Below are positions 1,545 to 36,100 of a stretch of DNA of 37,513 nt, piece after piece. This DNA comes from Chrysochromulina tobinii. Its lineage: Eukaryota. The position numbers and the translations under genes are program-made. Under the pieces are notes generated by a model. That model was not told where the DNA came from and made no database searches. It worked only from the letters and a program-made list of their open reading frames with translations. Location of the stretch: assembly GCA_001275005.1 (NCBI GenBank), contig JWZX01002932.1:1-37513 (forward strand). Direction: 5' to 3'. How positions within the stretch are numbered: position 1 is the first letter of the stretch; each line of letters begins with the position of its first letter.

Positions 1545-4500
1545 ATGCAGACGACTCCGAGGTCGCCGAAGCAGACACCGAGACAAGGACAAGTTGACGC
1601 CACTGCGAAAGACGCAAAGGACTACGACATGCTGGATGTCAGACTGGACGACGACACGCTGGACACACCGTGCAAGCACGAGTTTTCAAAGGACGCCGAT
1701 GATCATGACAGCGAGCTCGAGCCCTCTCACGACCCGTCAGACGACGGCTTCACCTTCACAGCGGTCCTCGTCGGTGGCCTCAACATGTGGAGAGATGTCG
1801 TAAAACACCTGTGCGGCATCAAATTCCCCGTCTTTGTCGCGGTCTTGGGCTCCGTGCTGCTCGTTGCCTTCTCCGCCTTGCCCGGCGATATCTGCATTAC
1901 TCAGAACGTCGGCAAGGTAATCTCGACCATCTGTCTCATCAGCGAGTCGAATTGGGTCATGGCGCTCCACCTCTCGGTCTTGGGCACGGTTTTGGGCTCG
2001 GTATGTAGCCGGAGCATCATGCGCGGCCTCCAGCATCCGATCGCCCTCATCATGACAGCGCGCTTGCTGCCCGTGCGCGCTCGAGCGTACGCCTCGGGCT
2101 CGAGCCGATCGGGTGCCATCGGCGCTGCCGCGGCCGCGCCGAGCCCCGTGACCATCGGCTACGTGACCGATGTCGAGGGCGACCTTGGCTTCTGGCGGCG
2201 CTACTGCGCCATCTCCGAGGTGATCGACGACAGCGGCGGCCTCGACGAGCTGCGACTGCACCCGGGCTGCCACTTTGTCTTCGGCGGCGACTCGGTCGAC
2301 AAGAGCAGCGGCGACCTGCGCTTCCTGCGCTCGCTGCTCGCGCTGCGCCGGCGCCACCCGGACCGCGTCCACCTCGTGCTGGGGAACCGCGACATCAACA
2401 AGATGCGGCTGCTGGCCGAGCTCGATGAGAGCCGCGACAACTGGCTCGCCGCCTCCGAGCACCCGGGCGTCTACTGGCGCGCGGGCGGCGGACCGGAGGG
2501 TGGACCGTCCACGCCAGCCACATACCTGGCGGCCCTCACGGGATCGCGCGCAATGGATACAGTCGCGAATCGTCTGCGGTACATGCTCGCCGACAACATG
2601 GGCTCGCCGCGCGCCTTTGAATTTCGTAGGCAGGAGCTCGCCGCACTCGGTGTGAACGCCGCCGCCGTCGCAGTCGGTGGCGATGCGCCGAGTGCGAGGA
2701 CGGCGGCGGCGACGGCGGGGGCGACGGCGGGGACGGTGGGCGGTGGTGGTGGTGGTGCGGCGGCGGCAGTGGGCCACACGGGAGTTGGAACAGGCGCCAT
2801 AGTGAGTGACGAGGCCGTTCTCCAGTCTTACCTCGACTCGCTCCACAAGCCCGAAGGTACGAATGCACCCGAGTGCACCTGAGTGCACCTGAGTGCACGC
2901 ACCTGAGTGCACCTGACGACCTCAGATTGCGTGCCTCACATCAGGTCTGATGCGGCAGTACCTCGAGCACGCCGTGCTCGCGGTGCGATTAGGCTCGGTG
3001 GTCTTCGTACACGGCGGCATTCATCCAGAGGCCATCGGCGTCGTGCCAGGGCGAAGTGCGATCTCCCTTGATTGCCCGTGATTGCCAGTGATTGTCCTTG
3101 ATTGCAAATGATGGCCCCGTTCATCCAGAGGCCATCGGCGTAATGCCTGGGCGAGGTGCGCCGCTGGCCGATGGAGCTGCTCTGCCCAGCATGCATGTGC
3201 TCACTACGACGCGCACTCTCCCCACAGGTGCGCCGGTGGCCGACATCGACGAATGGCTCGCTGCTCTAAATGCCTTTGCTCGCAAGGAGGTGAACGCATG
3301 GAGTGCGGACGTGGATGAGGTCGCAAGGACTGGCAAGGGGGCCGAGTGGGCAGGGCGACACGATCGCACCGGCTTTGGGTTCTTTGATCGACCAGGTGGG
3401 CTGAAGGCCACTGATGGCCACTGATGGCCTCTGATGGCCTCTGATGGCCTCTGATGGCGCCTACCGCATGTCTGAGCACGCACATGCTCACTACGACGCC
3501 CACGTCTCCTTCCCCACAGGTGGGAGGCTCCTCGCCTACGGCATGGATACGCAGCCCGACTTGACGAAATCGCCAACGGTCGTGTGCTCCTCGTACCTGG
3601 TGAATGGGCACCCGCACCGTCCGGCGGCGCGGGCGGTGGAGCGGTTGGCAGAGGCAGGGGTGCGTGCAGTCGTGGTGGGCCACCAACCCCACGGCGACGC
3701 GCCCGTTGTCATCCGATGCCCGATTAGGAAGGCGCAGGCAGCAGAGGAGCCCGCAGGGCAGTCCGCAGTGAAGTTCGCAGAGGAGTCCGCAGTGAAGTTC
3801 GCAGAGGAGTCCGCAGGGAAGTCTGCAGAGGCGGCTGCAGATGAGGATGCATTCCTCGTGATCACTGCGGACTCGTCGTTCAGTTCCTCTGTGGAATGGG
3901 AACCGCCCTCGTCCTCTCTGCCGCCGCCCTCGCCGCCCTCGCCGCCGCCCTTGCCGCCCACCACCGTGCCCACAGCGGCGCTATCGCCGCCGTCCACAGT
4001 GACGCCCAAGACGGCGCCCAGTTTCGGTCCGCCTCGCGGGCCATCACCGCCCCAATCCGAGGACCCCCGAGGTATGCATGTGCTCATCACGACGCTCTCT
4101 CTCCTCACAGGCCGGCCTCGCGGCCCATCACCGCCCCAATCCGACGACCCTCGAGGCATGGCAGTCGTCGAGGTGCTGCTTAGGGTTGCCTTGGATGGCG
4201 GCGGCGACCAGGACGGCGCCCAAGGTGCCGCCTTGCACCGCCAGCGCCACCAAAGCTGCCGCCACCACACCACCACCCGCACCGCCAGCGCCAGCGTCAG
4301 TGCCATTTGTGCACATGGGAGTGCTCACCACGGCGCCACCACTCCCCACAGGTATGCCATTTGTGCGCGTGCACGGTGTCCTATCGGATGGTCGTCGACT
4401 CGATTGCGTTGTCAGCGACGCCCCTACCGCCGCGGAGGCCTTCGATGGCACCATCCTTGTCGGCTCCGAGGCCGATGCAGCGACGGGGGCGGCGGCGGAG

Positions 4501-4728
4501 GCGGCGGCTGCAGCGGTCGATGCGAATGCGACGGACGCTTCTGCTCCAGCGGAGGCATGCGCCGTGTTGAGCACGGATGGCTGCTCGGCGCACGTGCACG
4601 TGGGGTGTGAGGTGGAGGGCGGCCGTTGGTGGATCAAGGCGAGGCTCGAGGACGGCGCGTGGCTGCTCTCGCGAGGGGAGGGATACAAGGTGCAGAACGC
4701 TGTGGCGGGTGGTAGTAGTTTAATATAA
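1545..4728 (+). CDS. Calcineurin-like metallophosphoesterase family protein, multi-exon, with hydrophobic N-terminal segments
   Basis: Motifs in order: YVTDVEG, FVFGGDSVDK, LVLGNRDINKMR, VFVHGG (exon after 2944) and VVVGHQPHGD. Frame-consistent GT-AG introns are 2857-2944, 3056-3227 (or 3031-3130 plus 3156-3227), 3396-3519, 4027/4072-4110 and 4225-4351. Stop is TAA 4726-4728. The start codon is uncertain. Confidence 0.8.
2857..2944 (+). other. Spliceosomal intron with 10-bp minisatellite (GAGTGCACCT)n
   Basis: GAAG|GTACGA...CACATCAG|GTCTG; splicing restores PEGLMRQYLEH...VFVHGG. Confidence 0.85.
3056..3227 (+). other. Intron (or two adjacent introns) containing a (TGATTG..)n minisatellite, a duplicated exon segment and the shared 3' cassette
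   Basis: GT donors at 3056 and 3156, acceptor CCCCACAG at 3227. 3020-3060 is duplicated at 3120-3160 (37/41 identical). Confidence 0.7.
3396..3519 (+). other. Intron with (CTGATGGCCT)n minisatellite and shared 3' cassette
   Basis: CCAG|GTGGG...CCCCACAG|GTGGG; the spliced product reads DRPGGRLLAYGM. Confidence 0.85.
4027..4110 (+). other. Probable in-frame intron (84 nt; alternative 39-nt form 4072-4110) with shared 3' cassette
   Basis: 4027-4076 duplicates 4111-4160 (44/50 identical). The segment ends GTGCTCATCACGACGCTCTCTCTCCTCACAG. Confidence 0.6.
4225..4351 (+). other. Intron with shared 3' cassette
   Basis: CAAG|GTGCCG...GTGCTCACCACGGCGCCACCACTCCCCACAG|GTATG. The 127-nt removal joins ORF 3444-4610 to ORF 4078-4728 in frame. 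The donor is uncertain. Confidence 0.65.
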
Positions 4729-4948
4729 ATGTGATGTAGTTTCTTCCCTTGCTAACGCATTCGGATATTTGTGGCACACTGCTGCGTGCGTGGGAGTTGG
4801 GTTCTGAGCCTTCCCCCCACGGAGTATACATCGTACTTCCAAATACGATGTATTCACACAAAGTTGTTCACAACCTTCACAAATCCCGAGCTGTCTCGTG
4901 TGAGTTTCCGTCTGGTCAAGGGGATAAGGGCCGACCACGTCCTTGAGG

Positions 4949-5788
4949 ATGAAGAGGACACTTTTGATGCTCTGCGCAACCGTGCACGGGTCCAATGTCG
5001 ATCTGCCACTTCTCGATGGCGCTCTGGCCGCCATTGCAGCCGCCAGAAATGCACTCACCGCTGCTGCAGAGGAGACCGCCGTTCGACGCATCCTACAGGG
5101 AGATGAACACCTGCTGCTACTGGCCAAGCACTTTGGCTACATGCCGAGCTTTGCACAGCTTCTCAACAATGCGGTGGGTCATCAGTCGGCGACTACGGTT
5201 GAGCCGTCGCTGGCGGCAGCGGCAGCTGGGGTGAAGCCGTCGCCGTCGCCGGTCAACGTGCTCACCTTGCGACGCAGTGTCAAGGAGTACGACTCTCGAC
5301 CAGTCCCGCCAGACAGCATCCGCCGAGCGCTCGATGCGGCGATCTTGGCCCCCAACCACTTCCTTACGGAGCCGTGGCGCTTTTACGAGCTCGGGCCGAC
5401 TGCGCGCCAGGCCGTTGGCGCACTGAACCCGGCAAAGCAAGAGGTCTTTGCCAAGGTACCCGGCTGGATGATGGTCACGGTCGCTGCGTCTGAGTACGCC
5501 GCGGACGGCAGTCTGAGCACTAAGAAAGGCCTCGAGGACCATGCGGCCACCGCCTGTGCCGTACAAAACTTCATGCTCTCACTGGCCGCTGAAGGCCTGG
5601 GCACGAAGTGGATGACGGGAGCTCTCGGCATTGTGCCTGAGAAGCTGATGGATCTGGCAGGTGTGAACGCGACGGCAGAGCGTTTCATGGGGATGGTGTG
5701 GTACGGCTACCCGCAGACGCAGCTGGAGAGTCTCACGGCACCTGCTCGCAAGCTGGGCGTCGAGGGCGTCTATAAGGTGCTCGCATGA
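4949..5788 (+). CDS. Nitroreductase family protein (YdjA/YfhC-like) with N-terminal extension, possibly a targeting peptide
   Basis: RRSVKEY, ALDAAILAPNHFLTEPWRF, EDHAATACAVQNFMLSLAAEGLGTKWMTG and GMVWYGYP are nitroreductase-fold motifs. Single exon. Confidence 0.88.
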   Translation: MKRTLLMLCATVHGSNVDLPLLDGALAAIAAARNALTAAAEETAVRRILQGDEHLLLLAKHFGYMPSFAQLLNNAVGHQSATTVEPSLAAAAAGVKPSPSPVNVLTLRRSVKEYDSRPVPPDSIRRALDAAILAPNHFLTEPWRFYELGPTARQAVGALNPAKQEVFAKVPGWMMVTVAASEYAADGSLSTKKGLEDHAATACAVQNFMLSLAAEGLGTKWMTGALGIVPEKLMDLAGVNATAERFMGMVWYGYPQTQLESLTAPARKLGVEGVYKVLA

Positions 5789-5933
5789 GTGTTCGTATTT
5801 GGTCGCCGAGACAGGAGAAACAGAAAGCGATGGCCAATGGCAATGCGTCGCTATAACTCCGTATGATGGACATAAGGTGTTGGCAACTGTGCCAGACTGT
5901 AATTAGTTTGTCACTCTAAAGAGATATATGAAT

Positions 5934-8900
5934 TCAAGAGGGGGGCGCAATGCTCACGCTTGTCGACCCGCCAGGGCTCAGTCGCACCACGTGACTGGTG
6001 CCCAGCAACCCTCGGCGGGCACATCCGATTGCGGCGGAAGTCCCAAGACAAGAAACGTGCATACGGCCCGCACTGACGGCTGGCGGGAACACCCGCTCTG
6101 AACGTAGAAAGAGCGTTGCCTCGGAGGATGGTGCAGCTTCGTGTCGCAGCAGCGCGAGCTTCACGGTGTTGGTGGAGCCCTCAAACGTGAGCTGCTCGAT
6201 CATCGCACCCTCGACGCTGATCGTGAGCCCAAGTCGCGCGATGTATGCGCGCCGACGGAGTGCGTCGCGGGGCGCAATCGTGACCCGACCACCACACACA
6301 TCCGAGACGCTCGCCTGGCTCTTCAGCGCCATCGGCCTGTGGCGAGCCGACTATGTCGCACAGCATGCACTCCCATCCACGCCACACCGAGCAGTCGAGG
6401 TATGCTGCGGCCGAGCGCCAGTAGCCGTACAAGCCAATGCCGTAGTCGCCCGAGTAGGCGTCACGCCGAAGCAACGAGGGGTCGCCATGCCACGCCATCG
6501 AGGCAGCTCCGGACGGATGGATGTTGGAGAGATGGCCGAGTAACGCCGCAGCACCCAGTCGTAGCAGATGCCCCCGCCCCGGGTAAGCGCGGTATGCGTC
6601 GAGGACCGCCACCGCGCTCAGCGTGCTTCCGTAGTGATGAAATTCACGCTCGTTGCCGAGGGAAGTCTTGCCATTGATCACATAGTCCCAATACCGCCGC
6701 GCTGAGCCTGAGTACGCCCAATGCGGGAGCACCGCCATGTACGCGAGCACAGCATCGACTGTCTTGTTTGCGGCCGCGTGATGGCCCTCACGGAGCAGCC
6801 AGGTGTGGATCTCTTCGTGCCCGGTCGAGTCCCAGGGGAACTCCGAGCCGTACGGGAACTCCATCGCCATCCACTTGCGCATCCGTGCTCCTCTCAAGTT
6901 GCGCATCTGGACCACAGCTGCCCTGAGCTCGCTCGCATTGGCCGTCTGTGCAGAGTCGGCAGCATGAGTTCCTTTAGGGCCGGCGGCACTTTTCGCCACA
7001 GTCCAAACGTCTGCGGCTGGCTGCCTCTCAGCTGCTTCGAGCTCGCGCTCCAGATCGGCGAGCAATCGCTCGAAGACGGAGCCCACCATCAGACCCCATT
7101 GTGAGGTGCCGCTGCCCTTTCCGCCGTGCACCCACATGGCCGCTGCCGTCCTCGCCGCCTGCAGCAGGTACCAGTGCCAGCTCGCGCGCGAGGCAAGCGG
7201 CGGCGAGAAGTGCCTCGCGAGCCGGTAGAGTGCCCAATAGACAGCAGTCACGTGCGGGTAGTTGTACGCGCGCCAGGTCTCCAGTGACCGATTCTCACTC
7301 CAGCACACCATCCAGTTGCAGCAGTTGGTCTTCTTGGCACACGCAGTCCAGCACTTGAGGCACTCGGCCGTCAGCGCCGGCGCGGCCGCACGCGCCCTCT
7401 CGGGCGCCGCCTGAAATTCGTCACTCCAGTAGACCATCGAGGCGCGCACTGCATAGTCTCGGCCCTGCAGAAACTGACGCCTGTCTCCATGCTCAGGCGT
7501 CCAAAGCGTCTCGTGCACGTACGCCTCGAGTTGCGCCACCTCCGAGGCCACGGGCGCCCCGAGCTGCTTGATGGCCATCGCGAGCGGAGCCGCTGCGCCT
7601 GCTTCGTCGGAGAGCCCATCCATAAAGATTCGAGGCTCGTCTAGGAGCGCTCCCGCGCCCACGCCCTCCCCTGATCGGTCGGCATCACTCCCCATGAAGG
7701 CGGGTGCGCGGTGCCAAGGGTCGGGCTTACCTGCCGGAAGCCAAGCCTGTCGACTGCCGTACGCGCCGTGCCGCTGCAGGAGCGAGCGTGCGTGCTCGAG
7801 GATGATCAAGTGCACAGTCTGCACGAGCGAGGGCGTGTGACGGCACCAGCCTGGCGACCCGAGGGCCGCGCTGTGATCACAGCCCTTTGCGTAGCGCAGC
7901 GTGAGCCTACAACGCCCAACGGCTTCGCGCAGCTTCAGAGTGATGACCTGCAACCGATGCCCCGACTCCCTCGTTGTCCCGTCGCATCCAACCCGCAGCG
8001 CGTCGTCGCCGCTGCCCATGTCAGCGCAGGAGATGAGGCGAGGGGCTTCCACGACGAAGTCGAGCGCCGACGGTGGGTCGGCACTGATGTTTACGAGAGC
8101 GAGCCAACTTCCCGACGGCAGCGATGGCAGCAGGACCTCAACTCGCGCCTGCATGCCCACGTGAAGCGAGGCAGCGGGCAGAGGAGTGGCGACGGGCATG
8201 CCGGCACCCACCAGCGCAGCAGGCACGTGGTCAACGGAAGCCGCAAGACGAAGCCGTACGCCATACGTAGCTGTTGCGCCGGGTAGCAAGGTGGCCTGGG
8301 TCGGAATGTTCCATGGATCTGGCTTGACCCCTCGATAATTCCACTCCTCTTGCGCATACGCTTTCGAGTGGAACACGATCTCGTAGAGTGCCTCGAACAT
8401 CCACCCCTTGCTGTCTCGCGACTCATCCTTCCGAAGTGGACGCCACGCCTCGAAGCCGGCAGCCTCTGGAGCGCCGTCACGGGCAGCCTCTGGCGCGCCG
8501 TCGCGGGCAGCCTCTGGAGCGCCATCCGCCGCGACGGCGCCGCGCGGCTGCGAAGACGGAAGCACGAGCAGGACTGGCCCACGACCGTTGGCACGTGTCA
8601 CCTGAACGTAGCCTGCGCCTGCCCCGAGGTACACCTCGGTGAAGCTGCAGTTGGCCGCCACATTGGCGAGGTGGCGCCCCGTGAACAGCTGGTTGAACGG
8701 CATCGAGAAGCCGAGCCCGCCGATCTGGAGCGCGAGATCGGCCGTATTTCGGAGGGACCAGCTGATGGACGCCTCGTCGCCCTTGGACGCGACGAGACGT
8801 GTGACGCGCAAGCCCGAGCCTCTGAGCACGTGCACTCGCGCAGCAGGACGTAACCCAGTGAGTGCAAAGGGGTACCATGAATGAATTCGTGCATCAGAGA

Positions 8901-9985
8901 CTGGCAGCATTGATGTTGAGAGGAGGGAGAGAGGAGGGAGGGATCTGCGTGTGGCACTGGAACGCGCACCGAGGCCGGAGCTGCGTGGTCACATCCATCG
9001 AAGCCGACGACCCATCACGAGACGCCACCAGCCCGCCGTCTGCGCCCGAGTCGGCGGGGTGAGGGGCGCTCGCCACGACCGTCGAAAAGCTAGTGTACCG
9101 AGCCTCGAGCGCGGCGGCGTCGGAGCGCGGCGCCGTTGGATCCATTGTTGGATCCAAGCGGCGCACGCGAATCGTCAGGTCTCCGAGGTGCTGGAAGCCG
9201 GGCGTGGAGCGATCGAGCGGCTGCGCCACGTTGCCCGAGCCCGACCAGTGTAGCTTGACGGACGGTTCGCGTAACGGGATAGTGTACGAGAAGCCTGATG
9301 TGGCGGCAGGGGTGACGACTTCGACCGTCCCGAGATCCGTTCGAAGTCCGATCAGGAAGGCGTCGCCGCGCCGCCCGCCCAGAGGCAGCAGCGATGAGCG
9401 AGTGAGTGCGGCACGATCGATGGCGAGGCCAGGGTCGAGCGCAGCCATTGGTGGCTCTGGTGGCTCGGGCGGCGGCGACGAACGTGGCGGTGGCGGCGGC
9501 GGAGGTGGCGGCGGCGGCGGCGGCGAGGCTCGCAGACGAGCGACGGTCTCGGCGACGCACGCGCTCAAAAGGCAAGCAGCCTCAGAGTCGATCCGCTGCA
9601 ACTGGTACGCGGCGCCACCATCGCCGACCTTTGCAAAGTGGTCCATCGTGATCTTCGGCTCGCTTGGAAGTGCCTCGACCATCGAGAAGTCGAGCGCACG
9701 CAGCTTGCACCCAGAGGTAGGGAATCGGATCCACGCCCGCATGCCTGCATCATCGATCCTCCAAACAGAGCCCCACTTTGAAACGAGGCATCCGGCACTG
9801 GCGATGGCTGCTGGTGGTGAATCAACGGCTGCAGCAACCGTGCTTATTGGAGGCGGTGGCGGAGCTGTGACTCGGGCTTGCTCGTTTGTGGCCGATTGGA
9901 GCATTTGAGTAGCCGGCTTCAACACATTCGCCCACAGCACGGCGGCGCCGACGATCAGCAACAGCACAAAGTGCCGGTTCCGCAT
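5934..9985 (-). CDS. DUF5695 family (putative glycoside hydrolase) with N-terminal signal anchor and Pro-rich stem; one intron and one apparent frameshift
   Basis: Motifs HLGDLTIR, IGGLGFSMPFN, GYVQVTRANGRGPVLLV, WRAYNYPHV, FPYGSEFPWDSTGHEE, PHWAYSGSARRYWD, EREFHHYGS and DAYSGDYG. Intron 8822-8969 joins ORFs 8894-9997 and 6181-8910 in frame. The C-terminal VTIAPRDALRRRAYIARLGL lies in a shifted frame (5934-6332). Confidence 0.8.
8822..8969 (-). other. Spliceosomal intron (148 nt)
   Basis: CCTCG|GTGCGC...GTGCTCAG|AGGC; the phase-2 junction gives LRPRGSGLRVTR. Confidence 0.7.
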
Positions 9986-10278
9986 TGTGAAACTCACGGA
10001 TGTGCAGGCAATCCGCCGGCCAACCGTCGGCCCTCTCGGCGTTCGGAAAAGAGGGCCGTCGGCCCTCTATGGGAAGCGCGCGGGATCGGTGTGAACAACC
10101 AAATTTGGAAACCGAAAAAACAATGCCAATCCGTCGCACAATAGTTCGAGCGCGGACGTGTGCGGACGTGTGCTTGTCGGTGTGCTCACGGCAGCGCCGT
10201 TACGTAAGTTTCGCCGAGAAGTGCGTTCCGCTAACACGTCGGCTCTCAAGATCGCGCTGACGGGAACGCAAGGCGAGG

Positions 10279-10736
10279 ATGGGCTGCGGCGCCTCCCATG
10301 AAGGACGACTTTCGCAATCGTTCCCCCCGATCCGGAGAGCGTCAAATCATTCAAAAGTAGTAGGGCCCCAAGTAGGGGAACCTCATCGTGCCGCCACTGG
10401 AATCCTCGTGGTAGAGTACGAGTTCAGCGAGGAGGATTGGGAGGATTTGACAGTTTACGAGGCCGGTGCGTCAGGCCCCTCTGCATTCGAGGCCGTACCC
10501 ACATGCATCTCATCTGTTGCACTGTCCCCCTCTCTCGCACAGGTATGGCCAGGGCTCGAGCAGCGGAAAATGCAAGGCAGCTAGGAGCGCTGAAATCAGC
10601 GCTGAAGTCGCCATCGTATGAGCTCACCAGCCATGCACACCGTTCGATTGAGCTCTCTATGACCGCATCTGGGACGGACAGCAGACCAGTGCTCTTAAAA
10701 CTATTGGCGACCAAGGGGCGCGCGACCAAGAGGTAG
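10279..10736 (+). CDS. Small hypothetical protein with N-terminal MGCGAS dual-acylation motif; intron 10466-10542
   Basis: ATG GGC TGC GGC GCC TCC start. The intron GCCG|GTGCGT...CTCTCGCACAG|GTATG joins ORF 10279-10584 to ORF 10437-10736 in frame. Confidence 0.6.
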
Positions 10737-10891
10737 CGACCAAGGCGCGCGTAGGGGTAGACTTTTCTCGACGGGGCTTTGCGGCTATCACTTGTACACT
10801 CAACATTGCATCTTTAACTCACACTGTACACCTTAGAGTATTCGTATTCTACTAGAGTTGTTGTAACGCATGCTAAGCATCTTGACCCGAT

Positions 10892-11719
10892 CTACTCACT
10901 CTGCGAGCGTACACATCTGCCGCCGAACATCATACTATTATACGGCCCGGAGCCGTCCACTGCGCGGCACTGCACGCAGAGGGTTCTCAGCTCTCTGTCT
11001 GCACCGGAGCAATTGTGAGCCGCGCACTTCCATATTAGGGATGTGCCCTCTCAACAAGCCCGCGCACGTTACGGAGTGCGCATACCAGGCGGGTGCCAGG
11101 CTGGGAGGCTGGTCGGCAAGCTGAATGATATCTGCCGGTTGCTCCGCGACGGCCTCCTCTCTGCATCGCAGTAGAGCTTGAAGGCGCTGATGCCAGTCTG
11201 TCCAGGCTGGCGTGCCAAGGCGCGAATGTCGTCGAGGACGTCGGCTGGCGCGTCGCGCTCGAGCGAGCTGCGTAGGCGCTCGCGAGCGGTCCAGGAGATC
11301 TCCGGCCCGTGGCTTGCATAGTAGCCGAGCAAGTGCGGTGTGTGTTCAGTCACGGTGAAGGATTCGTCCTCGTCGTCTCGTGACGCAGCGAGAAGATTCT
11401 GGATGGAGACGGAGTGCCGACCGGTGCTGTTCCTGTATAGCACCACGTCTGCCATTGCCCGCTGCTCCACAAGGCTGGCAGCGGTCGACTGCTGAGCTAT
11501 TCTCGCACCTGCCGAAAAGCCACCCATGCTTGGCGTGCGAGAAAGCGATACGGATGATGCGAGCCCTGCGCTCTGCGCGCGAGCCAAGGGCTGCTGCGAG
11601 CCGTTCAGCCTCATCACCGGCTCGTCGAAGACGTGGGCGTCATCGACGAGCATAGACCCTCGTTGGTGGAGCCGTTTCCCTTCACGGTTCGTGGGGTTTG
11701 AACACTCTCGAACCGCCAT
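10892..11719 (-). CDS. Hypothetical protein; probable intron 10999-11085
   Basis: Open frame from ATG 11719. A possible intron CCTG|GTATGC...GCTCAC...GTGCAG|ACAG extends the frame to TAG 10892-10894. No recognisable domain. Confidence 0.45.
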
Positions 11720-11769
11720 AATGGCGCTTTGAAGCGGCTTGGGCCCGCAGTTAGTTTCGTAGCTTCTGC

Positions 11770-13307
11770 ATGAAACTTTGACCATATTTGGGGTGACTTT
11801 CCTTTTTTTGATGGCGCCCTTCGCCGTCAGAGCCTATGGAGATGGTGATTCGACGCTGCTGAACCGCTATTTGCGATTTGACAAATTCGATGTCGACGCT
11901 GGTGCAGACTACGGCGTGCGCGACCTCGATTCACCGGGCAGGCTCGAGAGCAGCATGCCGTACACATTCGAGCCACCCACGCCATGCCTGACGGAGTGCT
12001 TTGCAGACCCGCACTGCCATGGCTTCGTCACATTTCATGGCCAATGTTACTTCCGCGGCGGGCCGACCCAGACCGCCGACCACCTGCTCAGCGCCAAAAG
12101 GCTTGCAGAGCAGAGCAAGCTCTACGTCCTAGTTGGCAAGCACAATGAGCTGCCATCACCGCCACCCTCACCCCTGCCGCCGCGGCCGCTGTCGCCTCCC
12201 ACCTCGCCTCGGCCACCGCCATCGCCTCAGCCACCGCCGTCGCCTCGGCCACCGCCATTGCCGCCGTCGTCGCTGCGATCGCTGGAGATCGACGAGCTCC
12301 TCGAGGGGATGAAATCGCACATGCGTGCTGTGCTGCTCGTGCTTCTCGGGATCATGCTCCTGCTCATCTCCTACACGTTCGCCCTCGAGGACGAGGCGAG
12401 GCAGACCTTGAAGCGACACGCCAAAAGCCTTCTCCTCGGCAACGAGGCGAGGCGGTCCTCCTTGAAGCATCATGTCGAACTTGATCGCTCCAAATACTTG
12501 AGCGCGCCGAGCCAAGAGTCAATTGAGGCTACGCTGACTCTCGACCATCCGAATAGCGAGCACTCCGAGTCCAAACACCAGCCGGAGGATGGAAAGCACC
12601 ACATGAGAGCGCGGTCCTCCGAGAATCGCTCAGAGACTCGGAGTGAGGCGGTGCCAGCCCCCGAGGAGGCGGCGCAGGGACGTATCGCGCCGCCGGCGAC
12701 GCCGCCGCCCGCGCCGCCGCCACCGCCGCTCCTGCCAGGCTGGCCCGTGCCTCCGGGATGGTCTGCGGCGCTGGACTCTGCGTCAGGGCAGACAATCTTC
12801 GTACACGCTCGTGCACGTAGTACGTCTGCCCCCTCTCATAAAGCCGTACTGATCACACCGGAGAATGTGCATGCACTGCCGCCGCCGCCGAGGGCTGACG
12901 GTGGCAACATCATTATGGGGTCTCCCTTGATCCAAAGGCTACCTGCCTCACCTGCCACCAGGCCTGACCAACTGCCGTCACAGGTTAAACAGTCTCCTCA
13001 GCCTCAACCACTGCTCTCGGACTTTGAGAGAAGCGTGTACCGTGTCGGCGGCGCCGAGGCGTTCGCCGATGAGGTCGCCAGCACGGCGCGGGAGTGGCAG
13101 GCAACGGGACGGTTGACACCCGCGGTCATCTCAGAGACGGGACGGGTGGCTGGCGACAACACCGCCTCTGAGAAGATCCCAGCGAGCCCCCTACCTGCCT
13201 GCGGCGCTTCAATCTCGACCGACAAACCCGAGGCTCCCGCTTCAGGCCCTTCCGATATTTCGTACGGCGTACTACCGCAAAACACTACAGTACTTGCGCT
13301 TTGTTGA
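11770..13307 (+). CDS. Single-pass membrane protein: signal peptide, PAN/apple-like Cys domain, Pro-rich stalk, TM helix, degenerate cytoplasmic WW-like motif (apparent 1-nt deletion near start)
   Basis: CLTECFADPHCHGFVTFHGQCYFRG (PAN-like), PPSP repeats, AVLLVLLGIMLLLISYTFAL (TM) and VPPGWSAALDSASGQTIFVH. Adding one T at 11777-11779 gives the signal peptide MKLLTIFGVTFLFLMAPFAVRA. Confidence 0.7.
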
Positions 13308-13877
13308 GGTTTGAAGGGTTGAGTTATTCCATTAAAGGTCTGAGTTGGTGCTGGTTGGATTTCGCGATCAATACGCGATCATTCCCCCGGCGCCCCGGGG
13401 GGGTGATCGTACCGAAGAGAACGTATGTACGTGTGTAATACGTGTGGAAAGCCCAAACCAGAGATCATGAGAAAGGGCCAAGGCTGCGAAGCAGCGTCTA
13501 AGCAGCGTCACCGTCTACTCTCACTCTCAGACTCCGCAACTCCGTCTCCTTACCGTCTCCCGCCTCGACCCATGGACTCTCCAAGAGGCAAGAGCGCAGA
13601 AGGTCGCGACGGTCGTGTGCAGAGGGCAACTACAAGGTGCACGAGGTAAGGTGGTAGGTGAAGGGTCCCCGCTTCAAATTCACGAGACACAACCGAACAA
13701 TTAAAAAAGAAAAACCGAACACAGCCCTCCAAATACGTCCCCCAAAGCGATGGTCAAAAGATGCACGGGGTACCGGTACGCACGGCGTGCTGAAAGACAA
13801 CAAAGTTTTATTCATAATGTTTCACCGAACAAACTCACAACACACGGTTGTCGCGTCTGTCGGGGGACCGCGAAGAA

Positions 13878-13925
13878 ACTGACTGACTGACGACACTGAC
13901 TGACTGACGACACTTATTACTGACT
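13878..13925 (+). repeat. Short tandem repeat (ACTG)n / ACTGACTGACTGACGAC x2
   Basis: ACTGACTGACTGACGACACTGACTGACTGACGACAC read directly. Confidence 0.8.
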
Positions 13926-14079
13926 GGCGTCTGTCGTGTTAACGTTCACGCACAGGGAACCACAACCGCGCACCTGGGATCTCTCGCCTGGCAAGTCGAC
14001 GCTGGGGGCATTGCCAGGCCCCAGCTCTGTGGGTGGGAAAAAGGAGGGAGCCGAACCTGTCGTGGACAAAAGGGGCCCT

Positions 14080-15636
14080 ATGTCATCGCTGAGGCGTCCC
14101 ACTCCGACCGAGGCGGCAGTGGTGCGCTGGCTGAGGGCGCTGCCACGACCCCCAGCGGAAGTGTACCTGCAGGAGGCACGCGTCGCGATTGAGGCGGCAG
14201 TCGAGCAAGTGCTCATCGACAGGCCGGCCGATCCTTTAACCGCCATCGCGGACCACCTTCGGGCTTATCGGCCACAGGCGTTGACTGAGCTGCGGGCTGA
14301 GATGCCCCACATGGAGCACAGTCCGAGCATCTCCTCTCGCATGCTGCTGCCGCCGCTGCTCTTGCACGACGGCAGCTCCATCAAGGGCAGCCTCATCGAG
14401 GGCACAATTCTGGCTCAGATTGTCAAAGCGGAGACGAAGGACGCTACACCATCTAAGGAGCCGGTTGTTGAGCCCGCTCGTGCCTCAGTTCAGGTAGCCG
14501 CGGCACAGGTCAAGGCGGAAGGGCGCGAACGCGTCGTATCGGCCGTCGATGCACAGGTCGAGGCTCATGGGCGCGAGCGCATCGCGGATTTGATCGCCCA
14601 ACATGCGGACGAGCTTGCGACGCTGCGCTCGCGGGTGTGCGAGGAGGAGCATTACGATGCGGCACGGCACGACGATCTTTTCCTCTTGCGCTTCGTGCTG
14701 AGCCACCTCCCGTGCAGTCTCCCACTGGGGAGCACAGGGAGGCAGGCAGGCAGGCAGGCGGCCGTCAAGGCTGTGAAGTCGACCATTGCGTGGCGAGCGC
14801 GACACGGCTTGGATGAGCCGGGCTTGCTGTGCGGCGGACCAGATGCTCTAGTGTTTGGACCTGTGGCCAAGTTTTACGCCTCGATGACGGTGCGCGACGC
14901 CGTCTCGTACTACGTGCCCGATGCGGATCGAGGTGCCGTTCTCGTCGCCGTGCCGGGGTTGCTCGACTTCCACCAGATGGTCGCCACCCTCAGTGAAGAA
15001 GAGCAGGTGATGGCATCATCTGATGACCCCATGCTGGCCCTTGAGTGCTCATGAGGGCATCGTATGACCCTTGATTGCAGGCCCAAGCGCATCGATTAGC
15101 CGTTGAGTGGCTCCATCGCCAGTGCGATGAGGTCACGCGGCGCACTGGCTACCTGACCAAGTATGTGCGCCTCATCGACCTGCACGGCATGTCGCTCCGC
15201 GGCATCAACCGCCGATTCCAGCGGCGTGACGCCGAGAATACGAAAGCAATCGAGGACTTCTATCCTCAGCTCCTCGGTGCTGTCTTCATCTGCCACGCGC
15301 CACGCTGGCTACAAGGGGTTTGGCGCGGCCTGCGCACTATGATGTCCGCGCGCGTGCTCGAAAAGGTGATCGCCGCGGATTGCCGCGGATTGCCGCGGAT
15401 TGCCACTGATCGCGCGGCCTCCTGGCTCACTCAAAAGATCACTGATTGCACTCCAGGTCGACTTCCTTGAGCCACGGACCAACGCTAAGGAGCGTCAGAA
15501 GCTGATGCGCTGGATCACGATCGAGAACTTGCCGCGCTGCTTCGGCGGCACCAGCGACACTTGGCCCCCGCCCAACACTCGATTCGCACCGGTGTCGTGT
15601 GGTGATGGTGTCGCGGAGGTCAGAACCCGTCTGTGA
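14080..15636 (+). CDS. CRAL-TRIO (Sec14-like) lipid-binding protein with N-terminal RIIa/Dpy-30-like motif; introns 15007-15080 and 15366-15456
   Basis: HDDLFLLRFVLSH...AVKSTIAWRARHGLD (CRAL-TRIO_N), LIDLHGMSL...EDFYPQLLGAVFICHAPRW...MMSARVLEKVDFL...ITIENLPRCFGGT, and N-terminal EAAVEQVLIDRPADPLTAIADHL. Both GT-AG introns are frame-consistent. Confidence 0.88.
15007..15080 (+). other. Spliceosomal intron (74 nt)
   Basis: GAGCAG|GTGATG...TTGATTGCAG|GCC, phase 0. Confidence 0.85.
15366..15456 (+). other. Spliceosomal intron with (GATTGCCGCG)n 10-bp minisatellite
   Basis: GAAAAG|GTGATC...CACTCCAG|GTCGAC, phase 0. Confidence 0.85.
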
Positions 15637-15689
15637 TCAGTGATCTGATCTACGTCTATCGAGCGGTACCGTTAAATCTGTTGAACGAA

Positions 15690-17328
15690 CTAGACTAAAT
15701 CTTTACAGTTGCTCCTGTTGCCGCCCTTGCTGATGCAAAACGCGTTCGTCGCCTTCCTCCACCACGCCGCCCTCGCCATGTTCGGTGACCTGCGTGGAGC
15801 CTGTAGGCGATCGAACGTAATGTGGCCTGAGTGGCTTGGCCGCCCCAGCTCAGCGCGAGTGCGCAAGCTGCGGAGCCCACTGCGGAGCACGGCTCCGAGT
15901 GGTCCGAGTACCCTGCCTCCACGCTCGTGCACCACCTCACCGATGAGGCGCCCAAAGTTGCCCCCACTCGGCGCGAAGAAGCGCGCTTCGGACATGAACG
16001 CGAAGTCGCAATCGACGCCAAGCTGTCCAGAGCCTGCCGGACTGATCCAGCGCACGTGAAGTGATGAGCCGCTGCGCGACTTCGCCGACTCGATCCAGCG
16101 GCGCAAGTGCGAGATGTACCTATATGGCGGCGGTGTGGCAATCAGCATGCAAACAGCATGCAATCAGCATGCAATCAGAGGCCATCAGAGTAGCGGGATG
16201 TACTTGAGACTGCGCCCCATCGCGCCATGCCCGAATCCAGTCTCGTTGTCATTGTTTGAGAACTTGCGCCCGTCGTCGAGCAGCGTATTGACCTTGGCCA
16301 CGATCACAAGGCCAGTGGCACCTTTGGGGAGCTCGTTGAGCAGCCCGTAGTAATAGCTCTCAGGTCGCACGTACCTGCCATATATCCGTTCCATAGATGG
16401 CCATTAGTCGCCATCTACAGTCGCAATCAGTCACAATCAGTGGTAATAGTTCTCGGGCCGTGCGTACCGGTCGCACACGGACGCGCTGCCGACCTCCTCG
16501 TGGATCGTCCATGGGGCCCCTGTCGCCTGGGCGCCCGCGCCACAACTCGTCGGCGCTCCGATTGCACACGCCGTTGCCGAAGACTTCGCCGAGGCGCACG
16601 TGCACTACGCACTCGTTTCGCGCGGGCTTCACGAACGGGCACGTATGCGGCCCTTGGAGCGCAGAGCTGCGCGGCACGGGCCGCATGCCCCGGTAGCGCA
16701 TCGCATCCGCCGATCGCGTCAGAGCTTTCATGTCGTACACTTTCTCGGCGAAGCGCGTGTAGTAGTCGCCAATTGAGCCCGGCCACTGCTTTCGCACATT
16801 CGCCGGATCGAGTCCAGCACAATGGAAAGCGTCGACACGCTCGCCGAAGCAGCCGATTATGTCCGCGAGCCGGTACTGCCCAATCATCCCGGTCGCGTTC
16901 AGCCACCACCGTGGGAAGTCGATCGCTGTGCGCGAGCACGCTTTGGGCTCCAACGCATGGAGTGGATCGGATGGCAACACCTTAATGACCAGTGCTCGAT
17001 CTTTGAGGATGCAATTCCCCTCCTCATCGATGCTGAACGAGAGGCAGTCTCGGCGGGCTGCACACGCGGCCCGGCAGCTCGAATAGGTGTAGGGGGCAAC
17101 GTAGTGCTGCAGTGGGCATGGCATACTGTTGATGCACCTTGCCTCAGGTGAGGTTATCGCCTCTGCCTGACACTCGAACTCGTCGAACTCGTCGGCAGGT
17201 GTGTGGCGAGTTGAACCGTTGATGGTGGAAGCCAAGGTGGAGGCGGCAAGGCCGATGAACAAGGCGAAGGCGGAGTAGCAGGCGGCGCGCGCGATGTTAC
17301 GTGGCAGCTTGACAAAGCCATCCTGCAT
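15690..17328 (-). CDS. Type II membrane protein with PAN/apple domain and fucosyltransferase-like (GT11/GT23-like) C-terminal domain; introns 16375-16467 and 16120-16203; apparent frameshift ~16513-16520
   Basis: N-terminal TM (YSAFALFIGLAAS), CRAACAARRDCLSFSIDEEGNCILKD (PAN), and VVHVRLGEV ... YVRPESYY ... DCDFAFMSEARFFAPSGGNFGRLI, which resemble HxRxGD / DF..MS / SxF motifs of GT-B fucosyltransferase-like proteins. Confidence 0.65.
16120..16203 (-). other. Intron with (CTGATTGCATG)n 11-bp minisatellite; 5' end resembles downstream exon start
   Basis: CTCAA|GTACATCCCGC...CCATATAG|GTACATCTCGC; 84 nt, removes an in-frame stop. Confidence 0.8.
16375..16467 (-). other. Intron whose first 28 nt are a diverged copy of the downstream exon start
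   Basis: Intron start GTACGCACGGCCCGAGAACTATTACCAC vs exon start GTACGTGCGACCTGAGAGCTATTACTAC (22/28). Contains CTGATTG repeats and ends TGGCAG. Confidence 0.75.
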
Positions 17329-17516
17329 TTTCTTCTCCCCGCGAGATTCTTGCTAAAAAAGGACATGAATTGAAACTGCCCCACGGAACCCTTCGCCACC
17401 AAAACGTCTAAAAACCTAGCCTTCTCTTGACTTGTCCTTGGCTCACTTGGCGACAGACTTGTGAGACCCGACCACATGGCGTGCAGAACCGTACAGTACA
17501 GTAAGTGCAACGTTCA

Positions 17517-23343: not shown

Positions 23344-23486
23344 CGATGCGAAAAGGTAAAACCGCCTTGTGGGGAAAATGGCGCTCGCAGAATGTGAAAC
23401 CACTTTCACTTGTTTCACAAATTTTTGAGGCCTGAAACCGAGCAGAGTTCCTGATCTGAATTGAATTGGCTTGACTTGACTTATTA

Positions 23487-23647
23487 CTGAGTCGGCCGCT
23501 GATTCGGTCGTCTCGCGGTCGCTCGGGTGCCGTGCCCCGACCCCCGTGCGGGTTGGGAACTTGGGATGGTTGTGAGGTTCGTCTGTGTCACTGTGTGATG
23601 CGTGTGCCCGTGTGTGTCCCGGCTCCTCCGGTGTCTTTTTACCGGTA
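23487..23647 (+). repeat. Dispersed non-coding repeat family, copy 3
   Basis: CTGAGTCGGCCGC...GTGCGGGTTG...GGATGGTTGTGAGGTTCGTCTGTG...CCCGTGTGTGTCCCGGCTCCTCCGGTGTCTTTTTACCGGTA is collinear with 434-605. Confidence 0.85.
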
Positions 23648-23753
23648 GCTTTTCAAACACCACGAGAGCGTTTTCAACTCTCTGATGCCCCACAGGAACC
23701 GAAAGTTCGCTTTTCCGAGTCATTTCTTGCCCACGTTCATCTTCGGGAGGGTC

Positions 23754-31780: not shown

Positions 31781-33119
31781 CTACCCTACTCCAGGTCCAC
31801 GCGGCACCTCAGCGGCGTCGCTACTGCTGGCCTTCCCGGCCACCCTGGCATTGATCGCCTCCACCTCGGCCGCGCGCTCCACTGCGGCCTGCTTCTCCTT
31901 CTTGAGCCTCTTCGTCGACGCAGCCTTGAGCAGCGAGTTGATCTGATCGGCTTCAGCTTTCGTCTTACGGAGCTTTTCAAGAGTCCGAGCTCCCTCCTTC
32001 TCAGCTGCGGCCATCTTGGTGCCCTCGATCATTACAGCTGGATCCATGGCCGTCCAATTGATCTTCTCGCCCGTCGCAGCTGCCTTCTCCATCAGATCTG
32101 CCGCCTGCTGCCGCGCCGCCAGCCGCGCCACTTCCAGTTCGGCGGCTGCCTCCGCAGATTTAGCAGCTTTTTGGGCTGCGGCCCTCGCAGCATCGGCTTG
32201 AGCCGCCTCTTGGGACGTCCTTTCAACGGCCAGCGCCTCGGTAGCCGCCACAGCGGCGGTCACGCGCGCTTCGTCGTCAGCACGCTCCACCGCTTTGTCA
32301 GCACGCTGCACCGTTTCGTCAGCACGCTCCACCGCTTTGTCAGCACGCTGTACCGTTTCGTCATCACGCTGCACCGCTGCCCGCTCCGCTGCCGCGCGCT
32401 CCACAAGTGCCTGTTCTGCCGCTGCGAGCTCTGCTGCTGCCTTCTCTGCCACCTCTTGCTCCGCCGTGACCTGCTGCACAGCTACTCTCTCTGCAGCCGC
32501 TCGCTCCGCTAGCGCTCGTTCCGTCGCCGCCTTCTCTGCTGCCGCAGCCATCTCTGCTGCCGCCGCCATCTCTGCCGCCGCAGTCTTCTCTGCCGTCGCC
32601 GCCTTCGCTGCCGCCGCCTTCTCTGCTGCCACCTTCTCTGCTGCCACCTTCTCCGCTGCCACCTTCTCTGCTGCCGCATCCTCTGCTGCAGCATCCTCTG
32701 CTGCCGCCTGCCGCGCGGCGGCCCTCTCTGCCGTAATGCGCTCGGTCTCCTGCCTCTCCGCCTGCTGCTTCTCCGCAGCAGCCCATCGCGCCTCCTGCTC
32801 TGCTGCCTCCACGCCCATGGCTGCTTTCGCCGCCTCCATCGCAGCAGCGCTCAAGTTGGGAGGCACATACTCTCTGGGAACGTATGGCTCAGCACGGCTC
32901 GGCGTCTGTGTCGGAGCTGCCGAGGGAGGAGCAGACGGAGGAGGCGCACATGCGGGAGGCGCGACCAGCGAGGCCTCCGCATCAACGTCCACCTCAGCTA
33001 CCTCAGCTGCAGCCTTGGCCTCCGCCGCCGCCTCGGGTACGGGCGCCGCCTCGGGCGCGGGGGCCGGCGCAAAGGCCAAAGCAGCTGCTTCGGCCGCCAC
33101 AGTATCGGTCGCCGCCGCC

Positions 33120-33199
<80 letters not shown>

Positions 33200-36100
33200 C
33201 ACCGCCGCCGCCTGTGCAACATCTGCCGCCCGCACCTGTGCTTGAGCAGCGACCCGCGCCTCAGCCTCAGCCGCCGCCTTCATCTCGGCAACTTTGGCCC
33301 TATCAGCGTTGCCCCTCTCAATGGCTTGCAGCCTCGTGGCTGCCTCCTGCTGTGCACTCGCCTCCGCCGCCTCCGCCGCTGCTACTGCCGCCTGCGCCGC
33401 CTGCACCTCCGCGGCCGCCTTCTGCGCTGCCAACCGCGCGTCAGCCTCTTTTTGAGCCTTGAGCGCGGCAAGTTTGGCCCTATCCTTCTTGCCCCTCTCG
33501 ATAGCCTGCAGCTTCGTGGCTGCCTCCGCCTCCGCTGCAACCCTCTCCGCCTCCGCTGCAGCCCTCTGAGCTGCGGCTGCCTCCGCTGCGGCCCTCTGCA
33601 CCTGCGCTGAAATCCTCTCAGCCTCGGCCGCCGCAGCTGCCGCCGCCTCGGCGAGGATTGCTTTCACGACGGCCTCCTCCTCATCGGCTTCCTGCAGGAT
33701 TGCCGCCTCGTCGGCGTCCTCCTTCGCACGGTGCGCCGCCGCCCTGTCGTCGGCTGCGAGTCGTGCATCCACACGGCGCTTCGCCTCCAACTTGGCCTGT
33801 TCTAGGAGCTCCTGCTCCTGCTTCTCCCTTTCCAATCGCTCCGTGAGCAGCTGCTCTTCCTTCCGGTGGGCGCTCGCCTGCGCCGCAGCTTTCGCTGCCG
33901 CCGCCGCCGCCGCCACTTCCGCCGCCTCCGCCGCCGCTGCTGCCTCTTCCGCCGCCGCCAAAGCCGCCAAAGCCGCCTCCGCCTCCGCCTCCGCCTCAGC
34001 GATCGCCTTGGTTGCAGCTTCCGCTCTGCGATGCGAGTCCACATAACGAGCCCGAGTAGCGTTACCACGCTGCGTGGCCTGGAGCATGGTGGCCGCCTCG
34101 ACCTCAGCAGCCGCACGCTCCTCGGCGCTGAGCTCGGTGATGGGTTGCCTCCGAGGCAGGGCCTCGGCGCTGGGCTCGCTGACGGACTGCGCGACGCCCC
34201 AAACCTCTTCGTACGTGGTTTCCCCCACCTCGGGCGGTGGGGGCGGCAATGCTGCTATGGGGGTTGAGGCGTTGGCGGCCGCAACGGCTGGCGGGGAGTC
34301 GGAAGACAAGGGTGCGCGTGGGGGCGGCGTCTCCTCGATAGGCTCCAGCGCCGCCGGCACTCGCAGCGATCCTGACAGTTCCGGCGGCTCCGTAACTGCA
34401 CGGACACTCGCAGCGATCACCCCCTCCACCACGGCCTCTCCGGGGGTTTGAGGCCTGCTGACGGCCCGGAGACTCGCCGCGATCACCCCCTCCACCACAA
34501 CCTCCGCAGGCGTTTTGGGCCTTTCAGCGGTCACTGCCTGGGCACTCGCAGCGATACCCCCCTCCACGGTCTCGGCAGGGGATGGGGGCCTGCCGCCGGT
34601 CAGGACGCTCGCAGCAATCCCCTCCTCCACGGGAGCGTACGGCTCGGGCAGATCTTGGCACAAATCTCGGACGCTCGCAGCGATCCCCTCCACGGGAGCG
34701 GACGGCTCGGGCAGATCTTGGCACAAATCTCGGACGCTCGCAGCAATCCCCTCCTCCACGGGAGCGGACGGCTCGGGCGGATTTTTGTACTCCACAGGAG
34801 CATAGGGCTCGGTGGGGGACATGGCGGGGGAAGAAGGCGCGGGGGTCTGTGCCGCCGACGGTGGAGCAGATGGAGGGGAGCCAGGGGGCGCGCCGATCGG
34901 CACGGCCTCGGCGCCAGAGCCCATCTCAACGATCGGCGCGGCTTCCGCGCCCGTCACGGCACCCGCGTTGTGATGGGCACCCGCGTCCTCATCCGGAACA
35001 GCATCGGCCGTCTCATCTGGCTGCACCTCGCCCCCCTCCTCCACCGCCTCCTCGTCCGCCTCCGCCACCGCTGACGCCTCGCGCGACACTGTCGCCCTTG
35101 CAACGGGCGCAGCCGACGGCGCAAATGCAAGCGCGGCGTCATTGATGGACGCCAAATCAATTTTGAAACTGATATTCACCTGTGGGGAGAGTCGAGCGCC
35201 GTGGTGAGCACTTGCATGCCAACGGCCACGTGGACGCCCAATCAATTTTGAAACTGATATTCACCTGGATCGGCGCGGGCGCCGCCGCTTCGTCGGCCAA
35301 CCCCTCAGCCACCGCCCCGCGCACGCGACGGTCCACAGCCGCTGAGGGTGCAAAGACGGGCGCAAAGTAGTCTGCCACGTCCTCTGCCACCGGTTGGACT
35401 ATGGCTAGCGACTTCGTCGGGCGCGCGTCGAGCTGCACGGCGACGGGCGGGGCGGCGGCGGGCGCAGTTTCTCTCAGGCTCTTGGTCCGTATAGGCGGCA
35501 GCCCTTGTTCCTTGCTGGCGAGGTGATGCAACTGACGCTCGAGGGGAGTCGGCGGTCCCTCAGATGAGCGAGTGAGTGGCACACGTCCATCTGCTTCCTT
35601 GAACGTCTTCGGAGGTTGCTGCCCATAGCATAGCTGCGGATGTCTACGAGTCACGCCGTGGTGAGCACTTGCATGCGGCGGCTTTGGACGGCTTCGGATC
35701 GGCGAGAGGCCCCCCGCACTTCGGCCAGGGCTGGAACCGCGGCTGTGGCTCGGGCTGGAGCCTCTCGATCGGCGGTTAGGGCTCGACCCGATCTCCCCGA
35801 TCTCCCTCGAGATCTCCCCGTCGTCCGGCGGCGGGCGCGCCCGCGGCTGCAGCTGGCTAAGCGGCGTTGCGAGCTGGACAAGCTCATCCGTCGTGGGCGG
35901 AGGCAGTATCGGGCGCCGGGCGGGCGGGGGCACGAAGGGGGTGATGCAAGATTTGGGCTCGGGCGCCACGTGACGCTTGGCGAGCTCGACGGCAGATCGC
36001 GCTCTCGGCCGATCTCGGTCGATCTCGATGGCGGAGCTCCGGCTGAGGCCGCCGTTCTCTACGCTCACGCCGCCGCCGCTGCGACTTGCGCCTCCGTCCG

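Follow-up and report, generated by a model that had tools for sequence, protein, structure and literature searches.

Introns that join a copied exon start to a recurring acceptor cassette in Chrysochromulina tobinii and related loci

A 37,513-nucleotide (nt) stretch of the Chrysochromulina tobinii genome (contig JWZX01002932.1; hereafter the window) contains six copies of a short cassette in two unrelated genes, a phosphoesterase-like gene and an EF-hand gene. Following this cassette into loci outside the window, we found that most of the introns that end in it consist of two parts: a duplicate of the first bases of the intron's own downstream exon, which usually brings the GT donor, and the cassette itself, a nearly uniform 24-nt core followed by a pyrimidine-rich tail that differs in almost every copy. 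We lean, by a modest degree, towards the view that these introns are made by DNA synthesis that copies nearby intron 3' ends into exons and re-copies the target, the products being filtered by splicing.

The sequence-only reading on which this work was based had placed the cassette at 3189, 3476, 4072 and 4313 on the plus strand and at 35219 and 35676 on the minus strand. A search of the window at up to three mismatches returned exactly these six copies (range 0-3 mismatches), while 100 shuffled versions of the window gave a mean of 0.02 matches and never reached six; the 23 identical nt common to both minus-strand copies were likewise recovered. The 5' parts of the introns, which had been described as unrelated, are indeed unrelated among themselves, but most of them copy their own downstream exon. 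This was the case for four of the five predicted cassette introns of the window. In the predicted 84-nt intron at 4027..4110 (+), 46 aligned nt from 4027 onward copy exon 4111-4160 ahead of cassette copy 3 (4072-4110), and retention of this intron would be in frame too. The predicted 85-nt intron at 35180..35264 (-) begins, at 35264, with a downstream-exon copy about 34-50 nt long, in which 33 of the leading 34 nt match, and ends in copy 5 (35219-35180); its removal extends the open reading frame (ORF) from 638 to 1735 aa. A predicted 52-nt intron at 4300..4351 (+), the donor of which was picked by reading frame, joins a 17-nt copy of the exon from 4352 onward to copy 4 (4313-4351). Copy 1 (3189..3227, +), recognized by pattern match as 24-nt core, pyrimidine tail and CCCCACAG acceptor, closes a predicted compound intron at 3056..3227 (+), removal of which retains a homologue-matching frame. 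The outer donor of this intron, at 3056, goes with repeat filler and with a duplication of 41 nt (3020-3060 versus 3120-3160), and its inner donor, at 3156, starts a gapped 28-nt copy of exon 3228-3267. Finally, the predicted 124-nt intron at 3396..3519 (+), across which homologues read FF(D/E)RPGG-RL, consists of 10-nt repeat filler and copy 2 (3476-3519), with 5 nt of duplication left at 3396.

Copy 6 (35634..35676, -) had been read as an acceptor like all others, and it is in this respect that the earlier description did not hold, neither here nor for acceptor-less copies elsewhere in the family. Since the frame is open through this copy and a duplicated donor is absent, it probably represents an in-frame insert within the exon rather than an intron end; of five upstream GT donors, a single one keeps the frame, 246 nt off. 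With the predicted introns removed, the phosphoesterase-like host gene (2019..4728, +; start uncertain), placed by homologous proteins, has a 729-aa open frame in a five-intron model, and the EF-hand host gene (31781..37073, -) encodes 1735 aa once 35264-35180 is taken out. RNA and DNA contigs were mapped on window positions 1500-17400, with the EF-hand gene outside the mapped part. None of the six window junctions, that of the compound intron included, was present in RNA contigs, a result that is uninformative because cover of the phosphoesterase-like gene was low and its joints were swamped by repeats. As another candidate for the intron we considered the cassette alone (39-40 nt, with its own GC or GT start). 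It is frame-compatible at three window sites and was rejected; all four RNA joints described below cut out duplicate plus cassette.

The wider sample consisted of the window, 144 metagenome-contig loci and two loci from a viral collection (146 outside loci). The metagenome loci came from an exact-pattern scan that matched at least 146 stretches; the sample is thus built round exact matches rather than drawn at random from the genome. Counting as core every match with at most four mismatches from the 24-nt consensus GCATGCAAGTGCTCACCACGGCGC, we obtained at least 265 distinct copies, with host genes from many Pfam families. Copies were called acceptor-bearing when YAG was the first AG 8-40 nt past the core and the flank was adequate (n=191), and a duplication was called when the exon start had a copy upstream that scored at least 10, a cut-off at which duplications below 10 nt are invisible. 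Exon-start duplications were found in 122 of the 191 acceptor-bearing copies, versus 0.47% of 3000 mismatched control pairs. They were 11-50 nt long (median 27, with a single outlier of 100 nt), 95.8% identical to the exon and perfect in 47 of the 122, and 106 began with GT; the target-site consensus was (C)AG|GTRCGC. Introns with a duplication had a median length of 78 nt and showed no frame bias (46/43/33). Overdispersion of duplication ages was not clear (p 0.08), and cores were no more diverged where the duplications were diverged. The proposal of a templated cassette that carries the acceptor and a branch-point-like motif and takes its donor from host sequence stands, with the amendment that the donor lies inside the 11-50-nt downstream-exon duplication. 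The notion of a single 40-nt element had to be given up; the unit is a core that stays fixed, followed by a tail that is nearly always different.

The core was uniform across the two record series, of 178 and 87 copies: 72 of the 265 copies equalled the consensus and 117 differed at one position. The tail, in contrast, was 86% pyrimidine and came in 177 distinct types in 191 copies, and all 30 tails compared among copies with a perfect duplicate were distinct. Upstream of the core was a spacer of 0-92 nt, and some spacers of 19-35 nt were common to unlinked loci. Judging from tail lengths, the A of the GCTCAC motif lies 18-46 nt, mostly 22-34 nt, ahead of the AG, a position consistent with a putative U2-type branch point. 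The cassettes, the ends of which differ from copy to copy, showed neither terminal repeats (direct or inverted) nor a terminal hairpin, and two window cassettes tested for folding had no stable fold (z 0.55, 0.89). A target-primed, SINE-like retroelement without long terminal repeats would have a fixed 3' end with a tail, 5' truncation and a partner reverse transcriptase; here the AG end is often fixed and the 5' side ragged, but 3'-cut copies exist and there is no poly(A). Both ends can be shortened, down to a bare 24-nt core between 3-nt repeats within an exon of locus L022. A search for a longer element or small RNA carrying the cassette had been suggested. At the unlinked loci L015, L016, L040 and L054 we did find a full-length form of about 72 nt, composed of a GTACGT donor, two repeat units and the core, the 3' part of which is also present at L093; by sequence, this form ties the cassette filler to the 10-nt-repeat filler described below. 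A known small RNA, on the other hand, found no support (Rfam, 0 matches at E up to 1 for window 2800-4500). The viral collection gave two core matches and no sign of a viral carrier. In one of them (L145), core and acceptor lie beside tandem repeats where a 4.5-kb contig ends; this is probably host DNA. On the minus strand of L054, at about 589, a reversed build was seen, in which the element provides the donor and the acceptor lies in a duplicated end of the upstream exon. A list of truncated cores (99 matches, one mismatch in 14) proved to be mostly chance in GC-rich DNA and was left uncounted.

That introns of this build are spliced, as had been assumed, was borne out by four GT..AG joints at a place other than the six window sites. 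In L022, which contains a DHX37-like helicase gene, RNA contigs of four runs skip 77, 71, 133 and 79 nt on the minus strand, each with GT..AG ends; the 71-nt skip was seen in three runs and the other three in one run each. Every skip equals duplicate plus spacer plus core plus tail, and the four introns lie within 900 nt. The spliced ORF encodes 1908 aa versus 823 aa for the unspliced one. Two distant helicase homologues align across all four junctions, two of which are free of gaps while the other two have a gap of at most one residue nearby. At L022 6702-6784, an RNA contig also skips 83 nt that lack GT..AG ends and lie in a low-complexity part, possibly reflecting another allele or an artefact.

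Comparison of relatives showed that the introns are lineage-specific. The 78-nt intron of L038 faces a single copy of the target in its orthologue L041, which differs by 63 substitutions in 3716 columns (1.7%); this was the sole clean empty site among nine locus pairs compared. Reciprocal differences were found between L022 and P0062, a protein 87% identical to the L022 product, which opens with a translated cassette and must therefore have been read from unspliced DNA. P0062 shares the L022 intron at residue 855 and has an extra duplicate-plus-cassette directly after it that is absent from L022. Conversely, four insertions of L022 are missing from it. Two of these are the introns at residues 874 and 972; the other two are a 24-nt core standing alone in frame at 1577 and an insert of 81 nt at 1701. 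Two more proteins, P0063 and P0064, read from DNA or RNA, are without the four L022 introns and the two further inserts checked. Between L013 and L059, from two strains, the same compound intron was seen with differing repeat and core units (columns 1000-1200 and 1500-1700); in this pair a core with duplicated target also spans a stop codon, and its copy number varies. The family can therefore be counted among introners in the broad sense, being a repeat in the introns of unrelated genes that is spliced out and was recently gained.

All six window copies lie on the coding strand of their host, as had been noted, and family-wide the orientation is biased towards sense, though not absolutely. 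When 150 of the 155 clusters were tested, a Pfam host gene was found on the cassette strand in 21 (20 real, given one low-complexity artefact) and on the opposite strand in two, the other 127 being without a Pfam match. Both Pfam-placed antisense copies lack CACAG, and they add 69 and 57 nt; a third antisense copy adds 69 nt, in frame, within the DHX37-like ORF of L022. A core also occurs in a 3' region just beyond a stop codon. Tandem arrays of target plus core, with periods of 45-57 nt that are mostly multiples of three, were seen at L008 (4735-4870), L064, L065, L047, L076 and L138; since all three sense frames of the core are open, the arrays may be translated. A strand test by codon model (68 sense, 8 antisense and 23 unclear; n=99) was left unused: two of its training frames contained stops, its accuracy was 54/60 and it miscalled a known sense copy.

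The same architecture recurred with a different filler. A general scan for GT-headed duplications gave 225 matches versus one in 232 kb of shuffled DNA. The core was contained in 123 of these and a 10-nt CTGAT-type repeat filler in 51; the remainder includes mirror matches and coding repeats. This second filler consists of 9-11-nt tandem repeats of the CTGATTGCC, CTGATGGCC and CTGATGACC types, and 25 of the 51 duplications with it end in TCATCAG. Of note, the unit CTGATGA gives this common acceptor when reverse-complemented, the relation that fold-back synthesis would produce. In the window, the only intron bridged by an RNA contig is of this kind, a 74-nt repeat-filler intron at 15007..15080 (+) with no duplication left. 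Others are predicted at 2857..2944 (+), from a homologue-placed gene model, with the end TCACATCAG, and at 16375..16467 (-), where the first 28 nt copy the downstream exon (21/28 identical). Further repeat filler lies at 3056-3125, 3396-3460 and about 15368-15457 (+) and at about 16120-16203 (-). The summed DNA depth was about 39,000 over 3093-3623 versus about 50 elsewhere. Because a second, unrelated filler shows the same build, a host process is indicated rather than one element.

Neighbouring copies also tended to be alike. Using 218 copies (one per tandem array) and a null shuffled within record series, anchor status and variant number, we observed that 55 of 232 same-contig pairs had a common core variant, versus 11.7% in the null (maximum 18.8% in 2000 permutations), and that 12 of 232 shared at least 6 flank nt, versus 1.5%. 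The sharing excess was present in both record series, and opposite-strand neighbours shared variants too (8 of 26 pairs). In L022, five of nine core pieces, one of the five being antisense, carry a variant seen in 14 of the 265 copies overall. At spacer-free junctions, microhomology of at least 2 nt was found in 10 of 21 cases against 13.6% expected (8 of 19 after setting aside two likely tandem remnants).

How could such introns arise? In the scheme that we favour, DNA synthesis during replication restart or break repair would depart from an exon and take as template the 3' end of another intron, often one close by, either as DNA or as nascent RNA. It would then rejoin the exon further back, at an earlier AG|GT, so that the exon start is duplicated and supplies the GT donor. 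The switches out and back may rely on 2-9 nt of microhomology. With CACAG|GTRCGC at the end of every existing copy, the return would be favoured at AG|GTRCGC, and each new intron would thereby template the next. Splicing and reading frame would select the surviving insertions and so yield the sense bias, and unequal exchange between the two repeats could make tandem arrays and also delete an intron exactly. Template switching by a host polymerase is the simplest explanation for the long and variable duplication, the ragged ends, the microhomology, the neighbour bias, the two orientations and the two fillers. The broader picture, a transposase-free intron factory in which host repair or replication copies intron 3' ends to donor-like exon sites in a local chain reaction, is put forward more tentatively, at somewhat less than an even chance; it would imply probably thousands of copies per genome, a number that is a rough extrapolation from 6 copies in 37.5 kb.

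Several observations weigh against template switching by a host polymerase. Its weak point is that uniformity is much greater in the core than in the tail, which unselective copying does not explain (the sample being anchored on exact matches), so that a splicing constraint or a sequence-specific protein is needed; the uniform core in fact fits a sequence-specific enzyme better. Selection for functional donors would produce the AG|GTRCGC target just as well, and 69 of the 191 acceptor-bearing copies lack a clear duplication in the same test. Neighbour sharing could be produced by gene conversion after insertion. The L022 joints were all read from RNA contigs, and an intron-less L022 allele is possible, while the L038/L041 pair, taken alone, is compatible with gain or exact loss. 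The in-frame excess of acceptor-less copies is weak (17/35, p 0.044; versus intron-type copies, Fisher p 0.33). The analysis covered the window and the 146 outside loci.

The main rival is a Replitron-like or target-primed element. Here the core would serve as the signal by which an enzyme recognizes a very small element that is itself non-autonomous. Such an element would be mobilized either by an HUH endonuclease of Replitron or Helitron type or through target-primed reverse transcription; one of its ends would be fixed at AG|GT, the other would be fuzzy and include donor flank, and the long duplication would be the work of the enzyme. We regard this as a possibility of lower standing. It would suit the uniformity of the core across the 178 and 87 copies of both record series and the presence of the GTACGT-donor form at unlinked L015, L016, L040 and L054, with its 3' part at L093. 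According to the parts of PMC10288648 that we cover, Replitron-1 inserts in a single orientation at a dinucleotide, with a fuzzy parental-flank end and variable duplications, and a Replitron protein is present at one locus of a haptophyte genome. An element, however, is hard to reconcile with the absence of terminal direct or inverted repeats and of a stable hairpin (z 0.55, 0.89), with a tail that differs in almost all copies right beside the supposedly fixed end, with the shortening of both ends down to a bare 24-nt exonic core between 3-nt repeats, and with a second filler that has the same duplication and different ends. A route through RNA, in which a reverse transcriptase on mRNA jumps to pre-mRNA or intron RNA at AG|GT, copies the 3' end of the intron and returns, the cDNA (complementary DNA) then recombining into the gene, seems improbable to us. 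Template switching in reverse transcription is among the models proposed in PMC3443670 (as far as its covered parts go), and such a route agrees with the strong sense bias (20 real Pfam matches versus 2), with variant sharing within a gene and with a 3' end that is usually exactly at the acceptor. Yet opposite-strand neighbours share variants at the same rate (8/26 pairs, including L015/L016 several kb apart), and cDNA recombination should erase adjacent introns, whereas the introns cluster, as the four within 900 nt of L022 do.

Selection on an old signal could also account for a conserved core beside a drifting tail. If the core were a lineage-wide extended branch-point signal, the duplications would have come about separately, as local tandem duplications within introns already present or as slides of their splice sites; tandem exon-start-plus-cassette arrays do exist, and duplication at AGGT has been shown to give introns (PMC3443670, parts covered). 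The empty orthologous site in L038/L041 and the reciprocal insertions of P0062 largely refute this explanation, cores occur in exons, past a stop codon and in antisense, where a branch point is unneeded, and simple tandem duplication does not produce foreign filler; we give it very little weight. The least credible alternative, which we consider next to impossible, is an artefact, in which the repeats were misassembled or the RNA joints arose when reverse transcriptase jumped from one direct repeat to another. Template jumps can be favoured by direct repeats 20-30 nt long, and the RNA evidence consists of contigs only. Nevertheless, a separate record (L083) matches the window identically across 1078 nt, and DNA contig 26 (run X6) covers 3922-4646 without a difference from the window. 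Moreover, the RNA joints can slide by only 6, 6, 13 and 23 nt, always with the GT..AG cut included, and one of them has only a 6-nt repeat.

The comparisons with published systems that follow draw on parts of the cited papers. Introners of Symbiodinium and of Polarella glacialis (classes 4/5 and 6/8/10) have the 3' site in the insert and the 5' site supplied by the target duplication (PMC9860276, bioRxiv 2020.10.14.339549). They resemble the present family in being multi-copy, with the acceptor in the insert, the donor in duplicated host sequence and an unchanged mRNA. In those introners the duplication has a set length of 4 or 8 nt (3-9 bp generally), inverted repeats are present and the element forms nearly the whole intron, whereas here the 11-50-nt variable duplication makes up about one third of the intron, inverted repeats are absent, the tail is unique and variants are biased towards neighbours. 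The contrast that the sequence-only reading drew with terminal-inverted-repeat (TIR) introners is too strong, a donor from the duplication being already known; the differences lie in the longer, variable duplication and in the local and ragged copying. Instead of the fixed 3-9-bp target duplication of miniature inverted-repeat transposable element (MITE) and TIR introners, the median here is 27 nt. Haptophyte families without inverted repeats, with one site from a duplication, are described for a Chrysochromulina sp. Tara metagenome-assembled genome; there, the duplication is 4 bp and the arrangement seen here is inverted, with the 5' site in the element and the 3' site from the duplication (PMC9860276). 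The core had no match in the part of the PMC9860276 supplement covered. Replitron-1 and Replitron-N1 of Chlamydomonas reinhardtii share the dinucleotide-anchored end, the fuzzy parental-flank end and the duplication of variable length, and differ in their size of 0.9-3.6 kb, 6-bp terminal direct repeats, hairpin and Rep gene, none of which was found in the window and loci (PMC10288648); they are not reported as intron makers in the parts of that paper covered. Introns from staggered double-strand-break repair in Daphnia pulex likewise have repeats of the adjacent exon's terminal bases and nested secondary insertions. Those repeats are 4-12 bp, with no evident shared filler family, versus 11-50 bp plus a recurring splice-signal cassette here (PMC4202315). 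In tandem genomic duplication at AGGT, the donor also comes from a duplicated exon segment starting AG|GT; there the entire intron is an exon copy, whereas here a foreign intron end gives the acceptor and branch region (PMC3443670). In the open literature, mainly titles and abstract starts, the family and 11-50-nt duplications at this scale are undescribed; subscription journals lie outside that search, and supplements may list them.

A 2025 survey gives zero introner families for Chrysochromulina tobinii (PMC12130899, parts covered). The pipeline of Gozashti 2022 demands similarity at both intron ends (PMC9860276). In the 122 duplicated copies the 5' intron part is locus-specific, and similarity to both splice boundaries occurs only in the few full-length copies. 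Since the standard survey criterion skips these introns, the route may be under-counted elsewhere. Where new spliceosomal introns come from is still unsettled, and transposons are currently held responsible for bursts of gain; if the scheme that we favour is true, it would be a way to new introns without a classical transposon, one that searches demanding both-end similarity miss. Hundreds of young introns, polymorphic among relatives, retain a record of their birth in the target copy, donor variant and junctions. As DNA and RNA runs from culture exist for the organism, direct tests are feasible of gain, of exact loss and of the enzyme involved. For annotation, it matters that retained or bare cassettes appear as recurring peptides in predicted proteins.

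Three further observations concern the window. RNA and DNA contigs over 16463-17265 carry 29-49 differences, which suggests a diverged paralogue or allele. At 10478-10543 (+), outside the modelled genes, lies an intron-like 3' end, CATGCATCTCAT ... CTCTCTCGCACAG|GT, which may be a decayed relative. Lastly, a dispersed intergenic repeat with ACACACGGGACAC... and GAACCTCACAACCATCC motifs occurs in both orientations at 200-600, 23480-23650 and 37200-37340.

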